This document shows positions 2,126-7,733 of a DNA stretch of 17,361 nt, in pieces. The translations under genes and the position numbers were made by a program. The notes below the pieces were generated by a model. It was not told the DNA's origin. It worked only from the letters and a program-made list of their open reading frames with translations, and searched no databases. The first letter of the stretch is position 1. Each line of letters starts with the position of its first letter. Source of the DNA: a virus; UHGV virus genome UHGV-2175977, one strand, 5' to 3'.

Positions 2126-4579
2126 TTAAAAATCAGCCTGATTCGGGATCAGTTTTTGTATAGCGGCTGTTACGTATTTTGCCTGGTGAAGAGCGTCATC
2201 CAGAGCATTATGGCGCACGCCTTCGAATGGAATTACGCTTCTGGCATTGAAGTCTGTGATTTTCCCCATCTCAACGATTGTGCGTACATCACGATCGTTG
2301 CTGTAATGCCACGGACAGGGGATGTCCAGACGTTCGTATGAGGTGCGCAAAATTGCGTTATCGAACGTTGCGCCATTACCCCACACCTGAACGAATTTTT
2401 CATCAGAGTGTTCATTGACGAATTCCCGAAAACGCAAAAGGGCATCTTTCATTTTTACCTGGTCAGTTAAAATGGCAGCTCTGGCTTCGCTGGACTGCTT
2501 CAGCCACCATTCGATGGTGCCACCATCAGGAACAGCCCCTGTATTCATTGCGTCAGTCAGGCTGATAACGATATAAAATACCGGCCCGATTTCCCCTGTT
2601 TCCGGGTCGAAGAAAACCGCACCAATAACTACTATGGGTGCATTGGTGTTGGTTCCCATTGTTTCAAGGTCGATCATCAGGTGATACCACGTTTTGCTTG
2701 TGGACTTATATTTGTGATGACTGGTTATCTTAATTAAGGGATTTGCCGTCTCGCCAGTTTCACTATCGCTGGCATGATGCTGATTGCCGCCAGAGTTCTC
2801 CTTGTTCTGATGCGCAGAGCCTTCCATTTCCTCTGGATCATTTTCCTGAACTTCAGGCTGATTCTCTTCATCGAACATTTCCTGGTATGTTGCGTCGCCC
2901 ATCACCACGCCACAATCAGGACAGTTGTCGACACCGCTCTGACCGCAGACGGTGCAGACTTTTTCCGGTTCCTGTTGTGCTACTGGTTCGGATTGTTTCG
3001 CTTTTGGCTCTTTTCGTTGCACATTTGGGCTGTTTTGTTCCGCTTTCTGGTCGTTCTGTTCCGATTCTTGCTGGTTCTGGTTCACAGAATCGCGGGTTTC
3101 AATCCCCTTCACCCATTTCGGATCATTCGGGTCGCTAATCCCTTCAGCAAATTCTCCGCCAGAGGTTGCCAGCAATTTGTCTTCGTCGACAGGATTTTGG
3201 GGCGGAATGTTTTTCCGGGATTCATGGAGTTCTGCCCGCAGTTTCTGATATTTCGCATCAACAGAATTCACCTGCGGCTGAGCATCCAGCGGCTGCGTGT
3301 CCGGATGATGTTCAGTTGTATCCGGTTCCACTGTTTCAGTCGTTGGCTGTTCATCTGCCATTGCGCCAGACGGTTGCGGTTTTTCTTCATCATCCTGTTT
3401 TCCTTCTTCTGTTACACGCTGCGGCATTGGGGCAGAGGAACGACCGCAGGCAATATCCACGATTTCCGGATCAGGGTTGGCATGATCGGTTTCGGTCAGC
3501 ACTTTATTCAGGTATTCGGTGACGCGGTGGGGCATAGCCTCTATACCAACCGGTGCTTCTTTCACGGAGGCAACCACGATGGCGCGGGAATAATCCATCC
3601 CGCCTGGCATGTTCAGAAAAGCCTTAAGGAAGACGGAGAAACAGGGATCATTTTCTGCGATAATTTCGTTAACACGTCTGGTATGTGAAGGATGCATGTT
3701 GTAAATATCCACATCCATCGAACGAGCCAGTTTTCCTGTAGCAACATCGAATGCCATTGACGCATTATCATGCACAAAACCTTCGCCGCGATCGGTAAGA
3801 ATACCGCCGCCAGCGTTAGCGCCGGATGGTGTGCGACTGATGCGAGAAACACGATTTCCTTTCATCCACTCTTTTGTAAGCAGACCACGATCAGTGTAGT
3901 CAGCGTCCAGGTATGCTTCGATGAAGGAGGTCATCAGTCCCAGGTCTGAATTTACGGGGGCGGGAAAAACTTTGTCAGTGTCCCGCACCAGTTTGTACAA
4001 ATCCCGAATCTCCAGCGGTTCGAGTTGCGCTGCTTTATTTGAGATGGCCAGCGCGGTAACGGCGGGAAGTTTTTCTTCCTGTGCGTTATGTAATGAGCGC
4101 AGTTCATCCCGCGAAACGTGCGTTACTGGTTTTTCGCCGCCGTGTTGCGCCAGCCAGCGAACAGGCAGAATCTGACCTGAAACCGGCAGAAGCATATTCT
4201 CCTCAATCTCAGTCATGTCTTCGCCATTAACATTGGTGTTGTCAGTGCTGGCTGGTTTGTCCTGCGCGGATGGCGGAGGCGCGATAAATATCATTGTGAT
4301 GCCATCTTCGCCGCCTTTTTCATACCGGTTACAGAATTCGGTATCAAACACGCCTTCCGGTGGAAGGTCATCAACAACGGGCAAATGGACGCGAACAGGT
4401 TTTTTAAAGTCGTCTTCATCATAATCGTTATCATCCATTGCGGTAATGCAGCGGGAGATGGCAACAGATAATTTTTTTGCTGTAGTCCAGTAAAAACCAC
4501 CTTTAATCCCAAGGCGTTTTCTGACTTTGTCATTTTTAGCTTCGCAATATAGCGCAAAAGTTTCTTTATCAGTGCTCAT
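2126..4579 (-). CDS. RecE-like exodeoxyribonuclease VIII homolog with C-terminal DEDDh (DnaQ-like) 3'-5' exonuclease domain
   Basis: 817-aa ORF, GAGG RBS 8 nt upstream. N-terminal and central parts ([19 protein letters not shown]..., acidic/Gln-rich linker, CxxC...CPDC) resemble recalled E. coli RecE; C-terminal ~190 aa carry motifs MIDLETMG (Exo I), [12 protein letters not shown] (Exo II), [13 protein letters not shown] (Exo III, H-x4-D). Confidence 0.8.
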
Positions 4580-4965: not shown

Positions 4966-5517
4966 CTATTTAATACTCAGCAACTGCTCGACGGTCATAT
5001 TTTTAATTGCGCCCCGGTTTATGAGAGTCCATCCCTGCTTTTCCAGATAAAAACGGAAAGTATCCAGAGTACAGACCAGTGCGCCATCAGGAACGGTTTC
5101 GGTGAATTTGATGTAGCCGTGTTCGTCGAAGCGGATAACCAGGGTGCGGCCATCACCCGGGATTATTTTGTCAGCGGGTGTGGTGTTATTCCGGCGCAGT
5201 TCTTCCTCCATGCGGTCGAACTCGGCAATGTAGGCTTCCTTGAATGCAGCGGCCTTTTTGCCGGTGAAGCCCATCACCAGGAAAACGAAGCCGTTTTTGG
5301 TGATTTGGTAGGCATTGTAGGTATTGCCACGGTGCTCGAATTTAACCCGCGAAAAGTTGCTGGTTAAAAAGCGTTCAGAACATTCGAGGGCCTCTATTTT
5401 TTGAACAACATGGTGATGCTGCTTGCCGAAGAATTCTGCGATCGCAATAGACGTAGTGACAGCGCGACCATTTTCAATGGTTACGTCAGGGTGAGAAAGG
5501 GTAAGGGTAGTAGCCAT
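4966..5517 (-). CDS. Rha-family phage regulatory protein (antirepressor-like)
   Basis: ORF track gives 4966..5814, but an intrinsic terminator lies inside the 5' extension. ATG at 5517 has a GAGGA RBS 7 nt upstream and starts the conserved MATTLTLSHPDVTIENGRAVTTSIAIAEFFGKQHHHVVQKIEAL block (Phage_pRha-like). Confidence 0.6.
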   Translation of the reverse strand: MATTLTLSHPDVTIENGRAVTTSIAIAEFFGKQHHHVVQKIEALECSERFLTSNFSRVKFEHRGNTYNAYQITKNGFVFLVMGFTGKKAAAFKEAYIAEFDRMEEELRRNNTTPADKIIPGDGRTLVIRFDEHGYIKFTETVPDGALVCTLDTFRFYLEKQGWTLINRGAIKNMTVEQLLSIK

Positions 5518-5684
5518 GATGGCATCCTCAAGTGTTAAGTTAATTAACTCACCACCGAGGCTTTCCACGACCATAAGGGTGGCGAGACGTACAGGGGTGG
5601 AAATACCGGTCACTCGAGAACCCGGCCAGCCTTGCAGCTGCCCTGCACGCCCCACCATTATCTGAATGTGGCTGTGCATTACGC

Positions 5685-5709
5685 ATAAAAAAACCGCTTC
5701 GGCGCGGTT
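5685..5709 (-). terminator. Intrinsic terminator for leftward transcription (tL-like)
   Basis: On the minus strand AACCGC-gccgaa-GCGGTT hairpin followed by TTTTTTTAT (plus-strand 5685-5709). Confidence 0.5.
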
Positions 5710-5964
5710 ATGCGCTCGAGTAACTTTCGGGTTTCCACGCCCGGCACCCGTTTTATGAGGTGCAGGTGCACTATAATTCCACCCGTACTGGTTTTCAATA
5801 GCTACATTCAACATTTTCTCTTACCTTTCATCACCGAAGTGAACTTTGTTGATGCGGTACCTGGTGCCTCCAGGCGACGTTAACCAGTCTGTGTCCGGCG
5901 CACGCACTCCACCTCACCCGTGGAGAAGTCATTAATTACCAACCCTGGCCTTGTTGATTAGCTG

Positions 5965-6183
5965 TTAACGCGGGTATGTAATCATTCTGGCAATGCTTAA
6001 TGCCGCTGCTTTTTCCAGCCTGGTGATATCCTGCTCCAGAGCTGACAGATTTTCAGCCTCCTTAGCCCTGGCTTCATTGGCCCACTTCAGGTCCTGCGCA
6101 GCCTGAATTTTCCGGCGCATCCACTCATAAAGTTCATCATCGGTATAGTCTGGCGAGATGATGACGGGTTCTCGCTTCTGCAT
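5965..6183 (-). CDS. Hypothetical small early-left protein
   Basis: 72-aa ORF, first gene downstream of the leftward promoter/operator cluster; charged, predicted helical (…KEAENLSALEQDITRLEKAAALS). Confidence 0.45.
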   Translation of the reverse strand: MQKREPVIISPDYTDDELYEWMRRKIQAAQDLKWANEARAKEAENLSALEQDITRLEKAAALSIARMITYPR

Positions 6184-6366
6184 ACTGATTTCTCTCAGTG
6201 CTGTTTCCCCTTAACGCCGGGGTAGCGGAACAAAAACCTGCTGCATAGTTAAAGTTAAACCCTGCCGTCATGTTCATACGCCTCGGGCTGGCTACTTAAC
6301 CCCTGACCACTGCCTGGTAACTCGAAGTATTGCCCTGCGTTCTGTGGGGCGGGGTAGGTTGGCAGG

Positions 6367-6413
6367 TATATAATGTACTTTGCGTTCAGTGTTGTAAAGT
6401 ACCTTAAGTACAT
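6367..6413 (-). promoter_or_regulatory. Leftward early promoter (PL-like) with three GTAC-core operator-like sites
   Basis: Minus-strand -35 TTTACA (plus 6393-6398) and -10 CATTAT (plus 6370-6375), 17-nt spacer; ATGTACT at 6373-6379, AAAGTACC at 6396-6403, AAGTACAT at 6406-6413 overlap the promoter elements. Confidence 0.4.
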
Positions 6414-6487
6414 TTTGTGTGTAAAAAAATGAGATGGAAAAAGTGAAGCACAAACCCGGAGGGGGGCGCTACCGGATTTATGCTGGT

Positions 6488-6907
6488 TTAAGAGGCTTTT
6501 TGTTTTTTCTTTCGTGCTAACTCTTCGTAAATTGCATTGTACTTCTGTTTTTTCTCCTCAAGAGTTTTTAAAAGTTCATCTGTCTCACTGTCAGGGAGCT
6601 CGTCCAGAAGGTCAATGATGATTTTTTGTCTTGGATTTAACTCCTGATAGAAACGTACCTGTCCACTTTCTTCTGTATCCTCTCCCAAAAGATAGGTTGG
6701 TGTTGTTCCAATGAGTGTTGCTAATTCCCTTAATTTCTCTCGGCGAGGAATTGTTTCGCCATTAAACCATTTGCTAACCGCTTTTGGTGTTAATTTCATT
6801 CGACGGGCAATTTCTGCCTGCCTTCCATGTTGTTCATAACCAGCGTTTTCACAGGCTAGCGCAAGCCTACTGGCGAACTCTTTACGCGCTTTATCTTCAT
6901 GAACCAT
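6488..6907 (-). CDS. Prophage repressor, XRE/CI-like HTH, no peptidase domain (RacR-like)
   Basis: 139-aa ORF divergent from a cro-like gene; HTH segment GRQAEIARRMKLTPKAVSKWFNGETIP; charged coiled-coil-like C-terminus; no Ser-Lys protease motif. Confidence 0.8.
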   Translation of the reverse strand: MVHEDKARKEFASRLALACENAGYEQHGRQAEIARRMKLTPKAVSKWFNGETIPRREKLRELATLIGTTPTYLLGEDTEESGQVRFYQELNPRQKIIIDLLDELPDSETDELLKTLEEKKQKYNAIYEELARKKKQKAS

Positions 6908-6927
6908 AAGTTCAATGATATTCGCTC

Positions 6928-6962
6928 TTGAATGTACTGTCAGTTCTGTTATAGCATGTACT
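6928..6962 (+). promoter_or_regulatory. Rightward early promoter (PR-like) with two ATGTACT operator-like repeats
   Basis: -35 TTGAAT (6928-6933), -10-like TATAGC (6950-6955); ATGTACT at 6932-6938 and 6956-6962, 24 bp apart, within the 79-bp divergent intergenic region. Confidence 0.4.
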
Positions 6963-6986
6963 CAAAGTTCACATTGTGAGGGTGAT

Positions 6987-7241
6987 ATGAACCAGAAAAC
7001 ACTTGAAGATGTAATCAAAACTGTTCGCGTTTCTGTTGTGGCCGACGTTTGTGGTGTCAGCCAAAGAGCAATCTACAAATGGATGGATAACGGAAAATTG
7101 CCTCGCACAGAATATACCGGCGAAACAAATTACGCTGAAAAAATCGCTCATGCATCAAACGGATTATTTTCTGCCGATGCAATTTTAACTATTGGCAGAA
7201 ATAAAACTACTACGAAAAAGCTGATGGGAGTTGATTCATGA
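6987..7241 (+). CDS. Cro/YdaS-like HTH regulator
   Basis: ORF track starts at 6915; ATG at 6987 has a GAGGGTG RBS and gives MNQKTLEDV... with HTH VVADVCGVSQRAIYKWMDNGKLP; divergent from repressor. Confidence 0.7.
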   Translation: MNQKTLEDVIKTVRVSVVADVCGVSQRAIYKWMDNGKLPRTEYTGETNYAEKIAHASNGLFSADAILTIGRNKTTTKKLMGVDS

Positions 7242-7663
7242 AAATCAAGCATGAGCATATCCGCATGGCGATGAATGCCTGGGCGCGTCCGGATGGTGAA
7301 AAAGTTCCGGCAGCTGAAATAACCAGGGTTTATTTCGAGCTGGGCATGACGTTTCCTGAGCTGTACGACGACAGCCATCCGGAAGCCCTGGCCCGTAATA
7401 CCCAGAAAATTTTCCGCTGGGTGGAGAAAGACACCCCTGATGCGGTTGAAAAAATTCAGGCGTTACTACCAGCGATCGAAAAGGCAATGCCGCCTTTGCT
7501 GGTGGCCAGAATGCGTAGCCACAGCTCAGCCTATTTCAGGGAGCTGCTGGAGACACGAGAACGGCTGGTGAGAGACGCTGATGATTTTATCGCAGTGGCA
7601 ATCGCCGGTTTCAATCAGATGAATCGTGGTGGCCCGGCGGGTAATGCTGTGGTGATGCACTGA
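7238..7663 (+). CDS. YdaT-like (CII-like) early regulator
   Basis: 141-aa ORF, start overlaps upstream stop (ATGA); positional equivalent of ydaT after racR-ydaS; assignment positional plus recollection. Confidence 0.5.
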   Translation: MKIKHEHIRMAMNAWARPDGEKVPAAEITRVYFELGMTFPELYDDSHPEALARNTQKIFRWVEKDTPDAVEKIQALLPAIEKAMPPLLVARMRSHSSAYFRELLETRERLVRDADDFIAVAIAGFNQMNRGGPAGNAVVMH

Positions 7664-7733
7664 CTGGCAATAGTTATACCGGATCGCTTTCGGTAGTACG
7701 TGATTAAGGAATTCGGTATCAGAAGAGGCAATT

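Follow-up and report, generated by a model that had tools for sequence, protein, structure and literature searches.

Predicted HK022/933W-type operators flank the gene of a short, DicA-tailed immunity repressor in a lambdoid prophage

Introduction

In UHGV virus genome UHGV-2175977, words with a GTAC core lie on both sides of the gene for a 139-aa repressor, which raises the question of whether they are operators and, if so, for which protein. We addressed this in a stretch of 17,361 nucleotides (the window), which belongs to a lambdoid prophage integrated beside ompW. A preliminary description of this DNA had read five such words as separate sites in two clusters, three over a leftward and two over a rightward promoter, in an OL/OR-like layout for a repressor that has no autocleavage domain. 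Our analysis supports a modified form of that proposal, in which the words are half-sites of five repressor operators, GWACT-N3-AGTWC, that together make up a lambdoid immunity switch (probability about 0.88).

Results

The repeated word and its dyad

All five GTAC-core words could be confirmed in the sequence at the positions first described. ATGTACT is present on the plus strand at 6373-6379, 6932-6938 and 6956-6962; AAGTACAT at 6406-6413 represents ATGTACT on the minus strand (6407-6413), and the word at 6396-6403 is AAAGTACC. Over the window we counted 5 copies of ATGTACT against 1.30 expected, with at least 5 in only 2 of 200 shuffles; four of the five fall inside 590 bp around the repressor gene, in keeping with two clusters that flank it, and the remaining copy, at 12027, has no dyad partner. 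Inspection of the clusters revealed a 13-bp dyad, GTAC-N5-GTWC, whose left half is supplied by ATGTACT (right halves GTTC at 6384, 6943 and 6967), and showed that the full operator unit is GWAC-N5-GTWC with a half-site G-W-A-C-T/C (T or C at the fifth position in 7 of the 10 half-sites of the five dyads). The words at 6396-6403 and 6406-6413, formerly counted as separate sites, are the halves of one operator (6399-6411). The original parse into five sites is thus right in its positions but not in its unit, and the count becomes three in OR plus two in OL. Likewise, the two right-hand sites are indeed 24 bp apart, as OR2 and OR1, but a third, OR3 at 6901-6913, which has no GTAC core, had been overlooked.

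Given the AT-richness of promoter DNA between genes, the 38 GTAC words of the window and the ATGTACT copy outside the clusters at 12027, the sites might be a chance or compositional by-product with no specific protein partner. This explanation is effectively refuted. The window holds five exact matches to GWAC-N5-GTWC where 0.61 are expected, a number reached in 0 of 200 shuffles, and all of them lie within the two clusters; one-mismatch variants are at chance level (22 against 15 expected), and the GTACs within the repressor gene, at 6539 and 6655, have no partner. For neither ATGTACT nor the dyad, therefore, did the search of the window reveal a similar density outside the clusters. When a position weight matrix (PWM) trained solely on distant relatives was scored over the window, the five dyads ranked 1-5 (scores 21.4 to 11.6; next best 8.6). 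Also against chance are the half-sites, invariant while the spacers drift, and the layout of the dyads at -63/-39/-6, which recurs as such or as a close variant in 43 loci of other species (see below).

A different reading takes ATGTACT as an asymmetric 7-mer rather than half of a dyad, since its two OR copies do form direct repeats 24 bp apart and repressors that bind direct repeats exist, such as P2 C (PMC2995052). We consider this very improbable: a conserved GTWC stands 9 bp from every clustered copy, the orientation is reversed in OL, OR3 and many sites of relatives use GAAC and contain no ATGTACT, and in a relative from O91 the flank changes from AT to GT with the dyad intact. In addition, the homologous repressor of 933W binds a rotationally symmetric site.

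Operators, promoters and a stem-loop

The dyads, taken as repressor operators, occupy defined places on three promoters. Each is predicted to be bound over a footprint of ~15–17 bp around the 13-bp core, and the start sites of the promoters are likewise positions predicted from the letters. The left cluster lies over a leftward promoter, as had been proposed: the early promoter PL on the minus strand at 6370..6398 (-35 TTTACA, 6398-6393; 17-nt spacer; -10 CATTAT, 6375-6370), which gave 9/12 matches in a promoter scan. OL1 (6373..6389, 17 bp; core GTACTTTGCGTTC, 6375-6387), an exact dyad with the fifth best PWM score in the window (11.6), occupies the PL spacer and contacts the -10. OL2 (6397..6413, 17 bp; core GTACCTTAAGTAC, 6399-6411), also an exact dyad (PWM 18.3), is spaced 24 bp from OL1 and either adjoins or overlaps the -35. 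More than 30 related loci keep this arrangement, [OL2]-35[OL1]-10, with OL1 between the hexamers, and the positions of the PL hexamers relative to the OL pair are conserved over Enterobacterales and Pasteurellaceae loci. Downstream of PL, in reading direction, are ydfC, a Rha/Ash gene, kil, recE, xis and int.

The right cluster sits on the divergent promoters PR and PRM, so that the rightward promoter of the preliminary description is also accounted for. PR, the rightward early promoter (plus strand, 6928..6955), was placed by eye, with -35 TTGAAT (6928-6933), a 16-nt spacer and -10 TATAGC (6950-6955). This -10 has no usual final T and fails the T-at-position-6 rule of the promoter scan; in relatives the position reads TATATT (the O91 relative) or CATAAT or TATAAT (Salmonella, Raoultella and metagenome). 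PRM, the repressor maintenance promoter (minus strand, 6915..6943; -35 CTGACA, 6943-6938; 17-nt spacer; -10 TATCAT, 6920-6915), gave 10/12 matches in the scan, and relatives carry TAnnAT at its -10 position. OR1 (6956..6972; core dyad GTACTCAAAGTTC, 6958-6970; PWM 17.3) is 24 bp from OR2 and lies over the predicted PR start site. OR2 (6932..6948; core dyad GTACTGTCAGTTC, 6934-6946; PWM 15.8) is in the PR spacer and adjoins the PR -35, with the PRM -35 within its centre, and this centre, CTGAnA, is kept across loci. OR3 (6899..6915; core GAACCATAAGTTC, 6901-6913), an exact dyad with the top PWM score of the window (21.4), straddles the repressor start codon directly downstream of the PRM -10. 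Relative to the repressor ATG, the cores of OR1, OR2 and OR3 are at -63, -39 and -6, respectively. Neither the PWM scan nor the one-mismatch dyad scan of the window found an OL3 or a far-right operator like that of HK022.

No Shine-Dalgarno sequence is seen before the repressor ATG (6907), and the PRM -10 ends 7 nt ahead of this codon, implying a leaderless or nearly leaderless mRNA. From this sequence context the repressor mRNA is probably leaderless, as are those of paaR2 and lambda cI (PMC8630535). At the other end of the gene, a stem-loop followed by a U-rich stretch (minus strand, 6447..6484) begins 4 nt past the repressor stop and folds with -19.3 kcal/mol (z = -4.8; an equally good fold in 0 of 200 shuffles). 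Its flanks are conserved in relatives, and a simple terminator scan did not flag it. It is likely the terminator of the repressor transcript, which would insulate PL.

Conservation in other species

We then compared 43 loci from other species of Enterobacterales, Pasteurellaceae, Vibrio and Pseudomonas. In most of them the dyads, measured from the repressor ATG, are at -63/-39/-6 or -62/-6; in Pasteurellaceae the positions are displaced by ~20 bp, and a single locus carries the -6 site alone. The equivalent of OR3 is at -6 in most loci and otherwise at -3 or about -26, although its conservation may partly reflect coding constraint, because codons 2-3 contain one of its halves. In the majority of the loci, a conserved PL 0.5-3 kb downstream encloses an OL pair with the 24-bp spacing. 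Among close relatives the half-sites are invariant, and the N5 spacers and the DNA between the sites vary. These dyads, promoters and conserved positions together bear out the OL/OR-like layout around the repressor gene.

The dyads are also retained when other parts of the region are exchanged: where the repressor has an S24-peptidase C-domain (locus L008, HK022 and 933W), where the divergent gene encodes antiterminator Q and there is no Cro (loci L009-L011), and where a higBA module stands between the repressor gene and OL (locus L005). They are absent from a heteroimmune locus, L004, which shares the repressor C-module, ydfC, DUF1391 and ydaT and has another repressor N-domain and another Cro. 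In these comparisons the operator motif appears to follow the repressor N-domain and nothing else. The repressor of L004 was also considered as PaaR2, an identity that we dropped as the N-termini differ (MDKYE and MQKKE).

The repressor

The immunity repressor (139 aa; minus strand, 6488..6907) consists of a helix-turn-helix (HTH) domain (residues ~1-76) that a flexible linker (77-87) connects to a helical C-module of the DicA type (~88-139). It has no autocleavage domain, as first noted: in Pfam HTH_3 was the sole match and Peptidase_S24 gave none. The N-domain is 58% identical to that of HK022 CI and 51% to that of 933W CI, and in the alignment K42, S45, K46, W47, F48, N49 and E51 are invariant; residue 41 is P in this repressor and in HK022 and S in 933W, and the recognition helix reads TPKAVSKWFNGET here and TPKAISKWFNGES in HK022 CI. 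For the 933W repressor, K42, K46 and E51 are reported DNA contacts, and its target is a symmetric 15-mer with G2, A/T3 (T binding tighter), A4, C5 and T/C6 (PMC3317979), a consensus with which, as with the mutational data of the same study, the half-site found here agrees. Judged from these alignments, the repressor would share the DNA-binding specificity and the operators of HK022 and 933W but would not be a full-length member of their family, because a 55-aa helical module has replaced the S24 domain.

We next considered this module. In the alignment it stands where HK022-type CI has its S24 part. BLASTP against K-12 DicA aligned 112 aa, the C-module included, at 29% identity (E = 5e-15), and the two proteins have in common the pattern L-x-P-[KR]-x(5)-L-[FL]-x(2)-L-P-[DE]-S-E...F/Y-N...E-E-L, with its LPxSE motif. 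A homologue search with the C-module alone returned three fragments only; exhaustive phmmer searches found it as the C-terminus in ~40 protein clusters with varied N-domains, DicA among them, and it also aligns with the heteroimmune L004 repressor. The AF2 model of the repressor has a mean pLDDT of 82.6, with the C-module as a confident helical hairpin. A sequence search of the PDB with the repressor gave only weak HTH matches, to P22 C2 and 434, and a Foldseek search of the PDB with the model matched only XRE domains in general, with no E value at or below 1e-3. The whole-length Foldseek analogies, to SinR, SPC32H Rep and an arbitrium-phage repressor, were loose.

A repressor without an S24 domain, in a prophage whose counterpart in the matching genome has IS66 insertions and a disrupted J gene, could also belong to a decayed switch, with inherited operators and a truncated, non-functional HK022-type CI. 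That this is so seems highly unlikely, as the C-terminal 55 aa are a conserved module rather than a frameshift remnant, with a confidently modeled fold, and the same 139-aa repressor is encoded by the deposited Escherichia phages Tritos and vB_EcoS-666R9. Moreover, of 5426 complete E. coli genomes, 1047 contain 80% or more of the immunity region.

Cro and YdaT

The gene rightward of the operators encodes a Cro-type lytic repressor of 84 aa (plus strand, 6987..7241; GAGGG upstream; RefSeq start 6987), which shares 62% identity with HK022 Cro (E = 1e-34). A longer cro reading frame, from 6915, would include its own promoter. Its identity to the Cro proteins of loci with these operators is 54-79%, against only 23% for the Cro of the heteroimmune locus. 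The product of the following gene (7238-7663) has a match to Pfam YdaT_toxin and a cII-like PHROG match. At the cro/ydaT junction, at 7231..7248, we found the YdaT box TTGATTCATGAAAATCAA, a TTGATT-N6-AATCAA dyad with zero mismatches, and a YdaT site, OM, has been footprinted at the same place in CP-933P (PMC9986795). The box is likely a PRE-type site for the cII-like YdaT; it is part of the same switch, yet not a GTAC site.

Both neighbors bear on the question of which protein uses the GWAC dyads. In most loci the motif and Cro vary together, which leaves the repressor and Cro not fully separable by comparing sequences alone, and the adjacent ydaT gene encodes a DNA-binding protein. Even so, there is only a small chance that either of them binds the sites to the exclusion of the 139-aa repressor: YdaT has its own perfect box, loci L009-L011 keep a three-site OR between the repressor gene and the Q gene with no Cro homologue, and the repressor retains the contact residues of 933W. 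Binding by Cro in addition to the repressor is part of the reading that we favor, as Cro is expected on the same operators.

Regulation and induction

If the dyads are repressor operators, a repressor dimer would set one HK022/933W-type HTH on each G-W-A-C-T/C half-site. Occupancy of OR1 and OR2, which lie over the start and in the spacer of PR, respectively, would turn off PR and with it cro, ydaT and the replication genes. As the PRM -35 is inside OR2, a repressor bound there might either activate or repress PRM. Occupancy of OL1 and OL2 (PL spacer and -35, respectively) would turn off PL and the genes from ydfC to int. OR3, over the repressor ATG and beside the PRM -10, would allow negative autoregulation of the mRNA. 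During lytic growth the HK022-like Cro would bind these sites, and YdaT would act separately, through its own box.

Since a DicA-type helical C-module replaces the LexA-like S24 domain, RecA-stimulated self-cleavage should not be able to induce this prophage. By analogy with DicA/Rem and the Gifsy repressors, induction would most likely proceed via an antirepressor. No antirepressor gene was identified in the window: the gene upstream of the DUF968 gene (11920-12198), at the position syntenic to that of Rem, has no Rem homology, and the window has no convincing LexA box, CTGTTGACGACAACAG at 11835-11850 being at chance level. The Rha/Ash gene (4966-5814), which has anti-repressor PHROG matches, lies within the PL operon that the repressor would shut off. 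[quoted passage not shown] Strong LexA boxes are present outside the window, at the far end of the same prophage, ahead of a DinI-like gene, and no small antirepressor reading frame was found downstream of that LexA-controlled gene.

Discussion

The immediate gain is in annotation: base-level positions can be given for five operators, three promoters (PR, PRM and PL) and a YdaT box in a prophage immunity type that is very common in E. coli, and GWAC-N5-GTWC in the -63/-39/-6 layout recurs over the sampled gamma-proteobacterial genera. A second gain concerns modularity, in that the HK022/933W-type DNA-binding specificity is fused to a self-cleaving S24 domain in some repressors and to a DicA-type module in others and, conversely, the DicA-type module is found with several unrelated DNA-binding domains. 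It is conceivable, and we offer it as a tentative suggestion, that the 55-aa module is a portable replacement for S24 on an HK022-type DNA-binding domain, which would convert an SOS-cleavable repressor to antirepressor-only control, with antirepressors possibly shared among heteroimmune prophages that have the same module (L004 type, O157:H7). Were this so, about one fifth of complete E. coli genomes would encode a repressor that cannot be cleaved and that could confer SOS-proof cross-immunity to HK022-like phages, and induction of the prophage would be coupled to the induction of others. HK022 cross-immunity, possible because HK022 has almost the same operators and recognition helix, and antirepressor cross-talk between prophages are the testable predictions that follow. 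Current understanding is not overturned, and the biological point is modest.

Lambda follows the same general plan: three operators serve the divergent PR and PRM, further ones lie on PL past the repressor gene, the 17-bp sites are spaced by 24 bp, and the maintenance transcript is leaderless, as is predicted here. The present region differs from lambda in an unrelated operator sequence, two OL sites rather than three, another repressor C-domain and an OL-OR distance of ~540 bp rather than 2.3 kb.

CP-933P and Rac resemble this region in the gene order repressor, cro, ydaT, in having OR and OL clusters and in a non-cleavable repressor, and CP-933P has an identical YdaT box at the cro/ydaT junction as well as a leaderless repressor mRNA, which is predicted here. 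However, the CP-933P operators are GTTTAGTAA-type repeats and RacR recognizes WTAGGC-N3-GCCTAW, both unlike GWAC dyads; none of these PaaR2 or RacR operators is visible in 6360-6990, and an identity with either type was dropped, as the published consensus sequences differ. The Cro found here is HK022-like and not Pfam YdaS as in CP-933P and Rac, and no toxin-antitoxin pair follows the repressor gene.

DicA and the Gifsy repressors GfoR/GtgR are short, non-cleavable prophage repressors inactivated by small antirepressors, whose genes are often under LexA control and located outside the immunity region (PMC10448788, PMC3121763). The repressor described here resembles them in its size (139 aa in a class of ~135-150 aa; lengths in this comparison 135-139 aa), N-terminal HTH, absence of an Ala-Gly/S24 module and DicA-homologous C-module. 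The left-arm genes are also the same (ydfC here; dicB/dicF in Tritos). The DNA-binding specificity is another one: the dicA-dicC region has TTAG/CTAA-type repeats and no GWAC dyads.

The closest agreement is with HK022 and 933W, with which the locus has in common the symmetric half-site G-(A/T)-A-C-(T/C), three OR sites with OR3 on the start codon, a 24-bp OL pair in PL and a homologous HTH; the C-terminal LexA-like S24 domain for autocleavage and oligomerisation is what it lacks. The motif also coincides with the annotated OR1-3 of phi24B. What we state of the HK022 operators rests on the HK022 sequence and on a secondary citation in PMC8053113. HK022 has the same GWAC-N5-GTWC, 24/33-bp OR spacing with the cores at -63, -39 and -6, OR3 over the ATG and a 24-bp OL pair around the same PL hexamers; its OR1 and OR3 are identical to OR3 of the window, and its OR2 differs at one central base. 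Unlike the locus described here, HK022 has an OL3-like site ~50 bp from OL2 and an extra operator ~300 bp to the right of OR, a site that our motif scan of HK022 also recovers and that Carlson & Little (1993), as far as PMC8053113 cites them, placed at this location. It has no YdaT-type cII analogue, and its CI, with a LexA-like S24 autocleavage and oligomerisation domain in place of the DicA-type C-module, binds cooperatively with OL-OR looping (PMC8053113). 933W has exactly five sites as here, OR1-3 plus OL1-2 with no OL3; its OR2 has one degenerate half-site, and its CI is S24-cleavable, carries S41 rather than P41 and is reported to bind non-cooperatively (PMC3317979). Given these two behaviors, neither cooperativity nor OL-OR looping should be presumed for the DicA-tailed repressor. 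933W and this prophage are probably heteroimmune in detail. As a whole the system is not unusual: it is a lambda-like switch and a new member of a known operator type, the HK022/933W family, and its only twist against the known switches of that family is that a short DicA-like tail replaces the self-cleaving domain.

Dyad operators around the repressor gene

The window corresponds to the left half of a lambdoid E. coli prophage whose integration site lies beside ompW. Positions 6200-7300 are 100% identical in E. coli strain 135, and at least 80% of this interval was found in 1047 of 5426 complete E. coli genomes; Escherichia phage Tritos is 94% identical over 5900-7700. The left arm carries int, xis, recE, kil, the Rha/Ash gene and ydfC, in this order on the minus strand, and next to it are the gene for the 139-aa repressor (6488-6907, minus strand), cro (6987-7241, plus strand) and ydaT, encoding a YdaT-type cII analogue (7238-7663, plus strand). 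Reading along the plus strand, ydaT is followed by replication genes, a ParDE pair, DUF968, rusA and Q. We also observed that the RecE-type ORF is unbroken in the window (817 aa; 2126-4579, minus strand), a stretch that RefSeq annotates in strain 135 as two CDSs (a 3'-5' exonuclease and RecE). Downstream of Q, RefSeq annotation of the matching genome places tRNA-Ile and tRNA-Arg genes (15370-15523), and tRNA genes in this position are typical of lambdoid late regions.

The preliminary description had listed five GTAC-core sites (ATGTACT) in two clusters flanking the repressor gene, and each was present at the position given. ATGTACT occurs 5 times in the window (1.3 expected; at least 5 copies in just 2 of 200 shuffles), and all but an isolated copy at 12027 lie in a 590-bp stretch around the repressor gene. 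Alignment of the five contexts revealed GT(T/A)C exactly 9 bp downstream of each GTAC. The pattern GTAC-N5-GTWC has just four occurrences in the window, at 6375, 6399, 6934 and 6958 (0.38 expected), the members of each pair being 24 bp apart; none of 200 shuffles reached five matches, a threshold that counts the palindromic 6399 site on both strands. Symmetric relaxation to GWAC-N5-GTWC added one site, GAACCATAAGTTC (6901-6913), across the repressor start codon, for a total of 5 in the window (0.61 expected; 0 of 200 shuffles reached five), and dyad variants with one mismatch occur at chance frequency. The repeat itself is therefore upheld, but its unit is a 13-bp dyad of which the 7-mer is one half; two of the five sites first listed are the two halves of one operator, and the operator at 6901-6913 had been overlooked. 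A motif search over the whole window placed all five dyads in two clusters near the repressor gene: OL1 (6375-6387) and OL2 (6399-6411), and OR3 (6901-6913), OR2 (6934-6946) and OR1 (6958-6970).

Operators overlap the predicted promoters

A consensus scan of 6200-7100 found two minus-strand sigma-70-like promoters and no others: CTGACA-17-TATCAT (6943..6915), the predicted repressor maintenance promoter PRM, and TTTACA-17-CATTAT (6398..6370), the predicted leftward early promoter PL. The predicted rightward promoter PR (TTGAAT-16-TATAGC; 6928-6955, plus strand) was read by eye. It failed the scan solely because the final -10 base is C, and the same position reads TATATT in an O91 prophage (87% identical) and CATAAT or TATAAT in more distant relatives. 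With PR so placed, OR1 covers its predicted start and OR2 fills its spacer. The OR2 centre holds the -35-like hexamer of PRM, and OR3 lies between the PRM -10 and repressor codon 3; at PL, OL1 fills the spacer and OL2 abuts the -35. The OL/OR-like arrangement proposed earlier is thus borne out, with three OR and two OL dyads over PR/PRM and PL. A one-mismatch dyad, GTATATAATGTAC (6366-6378), has its right half in common with OL1 and extends over the PL -10. It may represent a third, weak OL site, or nothing more than the -10 region itself. Overlapping sites with a 9-bp offset are also present in the OL regions of Raoultella (L008) and Gallibacterium (L058) loci.

Since the PRM -10 ends 7 nt before the repressor ATG and a Shine-Dalgarno sequence is absent, a leaderless maintenance transcript is implied. 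A minus-strand hairpin at 6447-6484, 4 nt past the repressor stop codon (-19.3 kcal/mol; z = -4.8) and followed by a U-rich stretch, was not flagged by a simple terminator scan; it is probably the terminator of the PRM transcript, separating that transcript from PL. On the other side, the cro ORF opened at ATG 6915, the start annotated in phage Tritos, is 108 aa long. Because this extension would take in PR, OR2 and OR1, 6987 is the plausible start; it has the ribosome site GAGGG and is the start used in RefSeq.

The operators are conserved in relatives

In phage Tritos and in prophages of O157:H7 and O91:H21, all half-sites are invariant, and substitutions fall in the N5 centres and inter-operator DNA. 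Searches with the repressor protein retrieved Salmonella homologues (62-65% identity) and 235-240-aa repressors with an S24 peptidase C-terminus, in which the first ~75-100 residues are 62-72% identical. All distant loci so found have three dyads before the repressor gene, spaced 24 and 33 bp, and a 24-bp pair lies further downstream wherever the downstream DNA reaches far enough. When a weight matrix built from the distant loci only was run over the whole window, the five operators took ranks 1-5 (scores 21.4 to 11.6; sixth-best 8.6), with 0.47 matches above the fifth score on shuffles. Scanning a single genome for each species yielded 43 loci, from Shigella, Klebsiella, Enterobacter, Kluyvera, Pantoea, Pectobacterium, Xenorhabdus, Arsenophonus, Proteus, Providencia, Vibrio, Haemophilus, Gallibacterium and Pseudomonas. 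Relative to the repressor ATG, the dyads lie at -63/-39/-6 or -62/-6 in most of these; they are displaced by ~20 bp in Pasteurellaceae, and one locus has the -6 site alone. Most also have an OL pair 0.5-3 kb downstream, and more than 30 loci retain the promoter frame [OL2] TTTACA/TTGACx, five bases, [OL1] ATTATA/ATAATA.

The sites belong to the HK022/933W operator family

A tblastn search of phage genomes with the repressor N-domain matched CI of HK022 (58%) and CI of 933W, phi24B and many Stx phages (51%). Applied to HK022, the motif picks out OR1-OR3 with the same 24/33 spacing, OR3 lying over the cI ATG, and the HK022 OR1 and OR3 sequences are identical to OR3 of the window; two OL sites 24 bp apart and a further site 267 bp beyond OR1 are also marked. 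These positions fit the literature, in which a CI operator is reported ~300 bp downstream of OR and ~700 bp separate OL from OR (PMC8053113). The GenBank-annotated operators of phi24B contain exact dyads in OR1 and OR3 and a half-degenerate dyad in OR2. Experiments on the 933W repressor define a 15-mer site with rotational symmetry, preferences for G2, A3 (T tighter), A4, C5 and T or C6, and contacts by S41, K42, K46 and E51; 933W has five natural sites and lacks OL3 (PMC3317979). The half-site in the window is the same as that of 933W; K42, K46 and E51 are invariant in the repressor alignment, position 41 being P in the window's repressor and in HK022. Identity between the Cro proteins of the window and of HK022 is 62%. 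Together, the half-site match, conserved contacts, HK022 layout, phi24B dyads and Cro identity identify the GTAC sites as operators of the HK022/933W family.

Judged by sequence comparison, the motif follows the N-terminal domain of the repressor. It is kept where the C-domain is of S24 type (L008, HK022 and 933W), where the repressor gene and OL are separated by an inserted higBA pair or AAA-ATPase gene, and where the divergent gene is antiterminator Q and no Cro homologue is present (metagenome contigs L009-L011). It is absent from a heteroimmune O157:H7 prophage (L004) with the same flanking DUF1391, ydfB, ydfC and ydaT, whose repressor has the C-terminal 55 residues in common with ours and a different N-domain; its Cro differs too. 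The repressor-cro intergenic region of L004 has its own repeat, ACCTGTGGGTATT, twice (2185-2250) with adjoining GTAAAC/GTTTAC, a candidate for that prophage's own operator. The recognition helix TPKAVSKWFNGE is invariant in 5 of the 6 closest motif-bearing proteins aligned.

Two arrangements in these loci were also observed. In L009-L011 the same three-operator OR (2386-2510) lies between the S24-type repressor gene and the Q gene, with lysis genes after it and no cro, and the repressor appears to control Q directly. In Salmonella (L005-L007, 3053-3850) and Raoultella (L008, 3308-4975), accessory genes (higB toxin plus HTH antitoxin, or a 480-aa AAA ATPase) occupy the interval between the repressor gene and OL/PL, the slot of paaA2-parE2 in CP-933P and rexAB in lambda.

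A DicA-type C-terminal module and the likely route of induction

Pfam gives HTH_3 only for the repressor, in agreement with the earlier statement that it has no autocleavage domain. The AF2 model (mean pLDDT 82.6) has a five-helix HTH domain (residues 2-74), a low-confidence linker (77-87) and a helix-turn-long-helix hairpin (92-138); a structure search with it found nothing beyond generic XRE matches. The hairpin aligns with the C-terminus of DicA from prophage Qin (29% identity over 112 residues; pairwise E-value 5e-15), with the common motif LxP[KR]x5L[FL]xxLP[DE]SE...[FY]N...EEL, and with short repressors (146-148 aa) from Arsenophonus and Xenorhabdus, whose N-domains are 933W-like and whose operators are the same as in the window. 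An exhaustive phmmer search placed the module at the extreme C-terminus in ~40 clusters (proteins of 50-216 aa), and the N-domains sampled across them differ (classical HTH_3, L004 type and YdaS-like type). The HK022-type N-domain and DicA-aligned C-terminus indicate a mosaic repressor, in which a DicA-type C-terminal module is joined to a DNA-binding domain of HK022 type. DicA and the Gifsy repressors form a short, non-cleavable lambdoid class inactivated by antirepressors (Rem, GfoA/GfhA/GftA), with GfoA and GfhA each targeting two heteroimmune repressors (PMC10448788; PMC3121763).

We infer that induction of this prophage is most likely antirepressor-dependent. Neither a Rem homologue nor a LexA box was found in the window. 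Anti-repressor PHROGs are matched by the Rha/Ash protein (282 aa; 4966-5814, minus strand), in which Ash and Phage_pRha domains are fused; it may be an antirepressor or a regulator of another prophage, but its gene belongs to the PL operon, where it lies between ydfC and kil. In L017, which is the same prophage, strong LexA boxes TACTGTATACAAAAACAGTG and CACTGTTTATCCATACAGTT (35115-35162, ~28 kb to the right of the window) overlap a DinI-like gene's promoter, and an ORF6N-domain gene lies upstream. This unit resembles the LexA-controlled dinI-antirepressor units of Gifsy prophages; a small antirepressor ORF was not found after the DinI-like gene. Separately, a palindrome, CTGTTGACGACAACAG (11835-11850), lies upstream of the ParE/ParD toxin-antitoxin pair (11222-11850, minus strand). 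Although it fits CTGT-N8-ACAG, one such match is expected by chance and the middle of the palindrome is GC-rich; a ParD operator is more likely here than a LexA box.

Establishment arm and comparison with known switches

A perfect TTGATT-N6-AATCAA inverted repeat, TTGATTCATGAAAATCAA (7231-7248), lies on the cro stop and ydaT start. In CP-933P, YdaT has been footprinted on site OM, next to a PRE-type promoter (PMC9986795). Since the box is identical to OM in consensus and position, it is likely a PRE-type establishment element, which would make the establishment arm of CP-933P/Rac type and the maintenance arm of HK022 type.

In the switch that we propose, the operators would be occupied by the dimeric HTH repressor and also by Cro, the repressor would negatively autoregulate through OR3 from a leaderless PRM transcript, and induction would depend on an antirepressor; the basis for this mechanism is strong comparative evidence together with experiments on homologues. 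The operator family, its layout and the non-cleavable repressor class have all been described before, and the switch in the window adds a further case to this operator family and repressor class.
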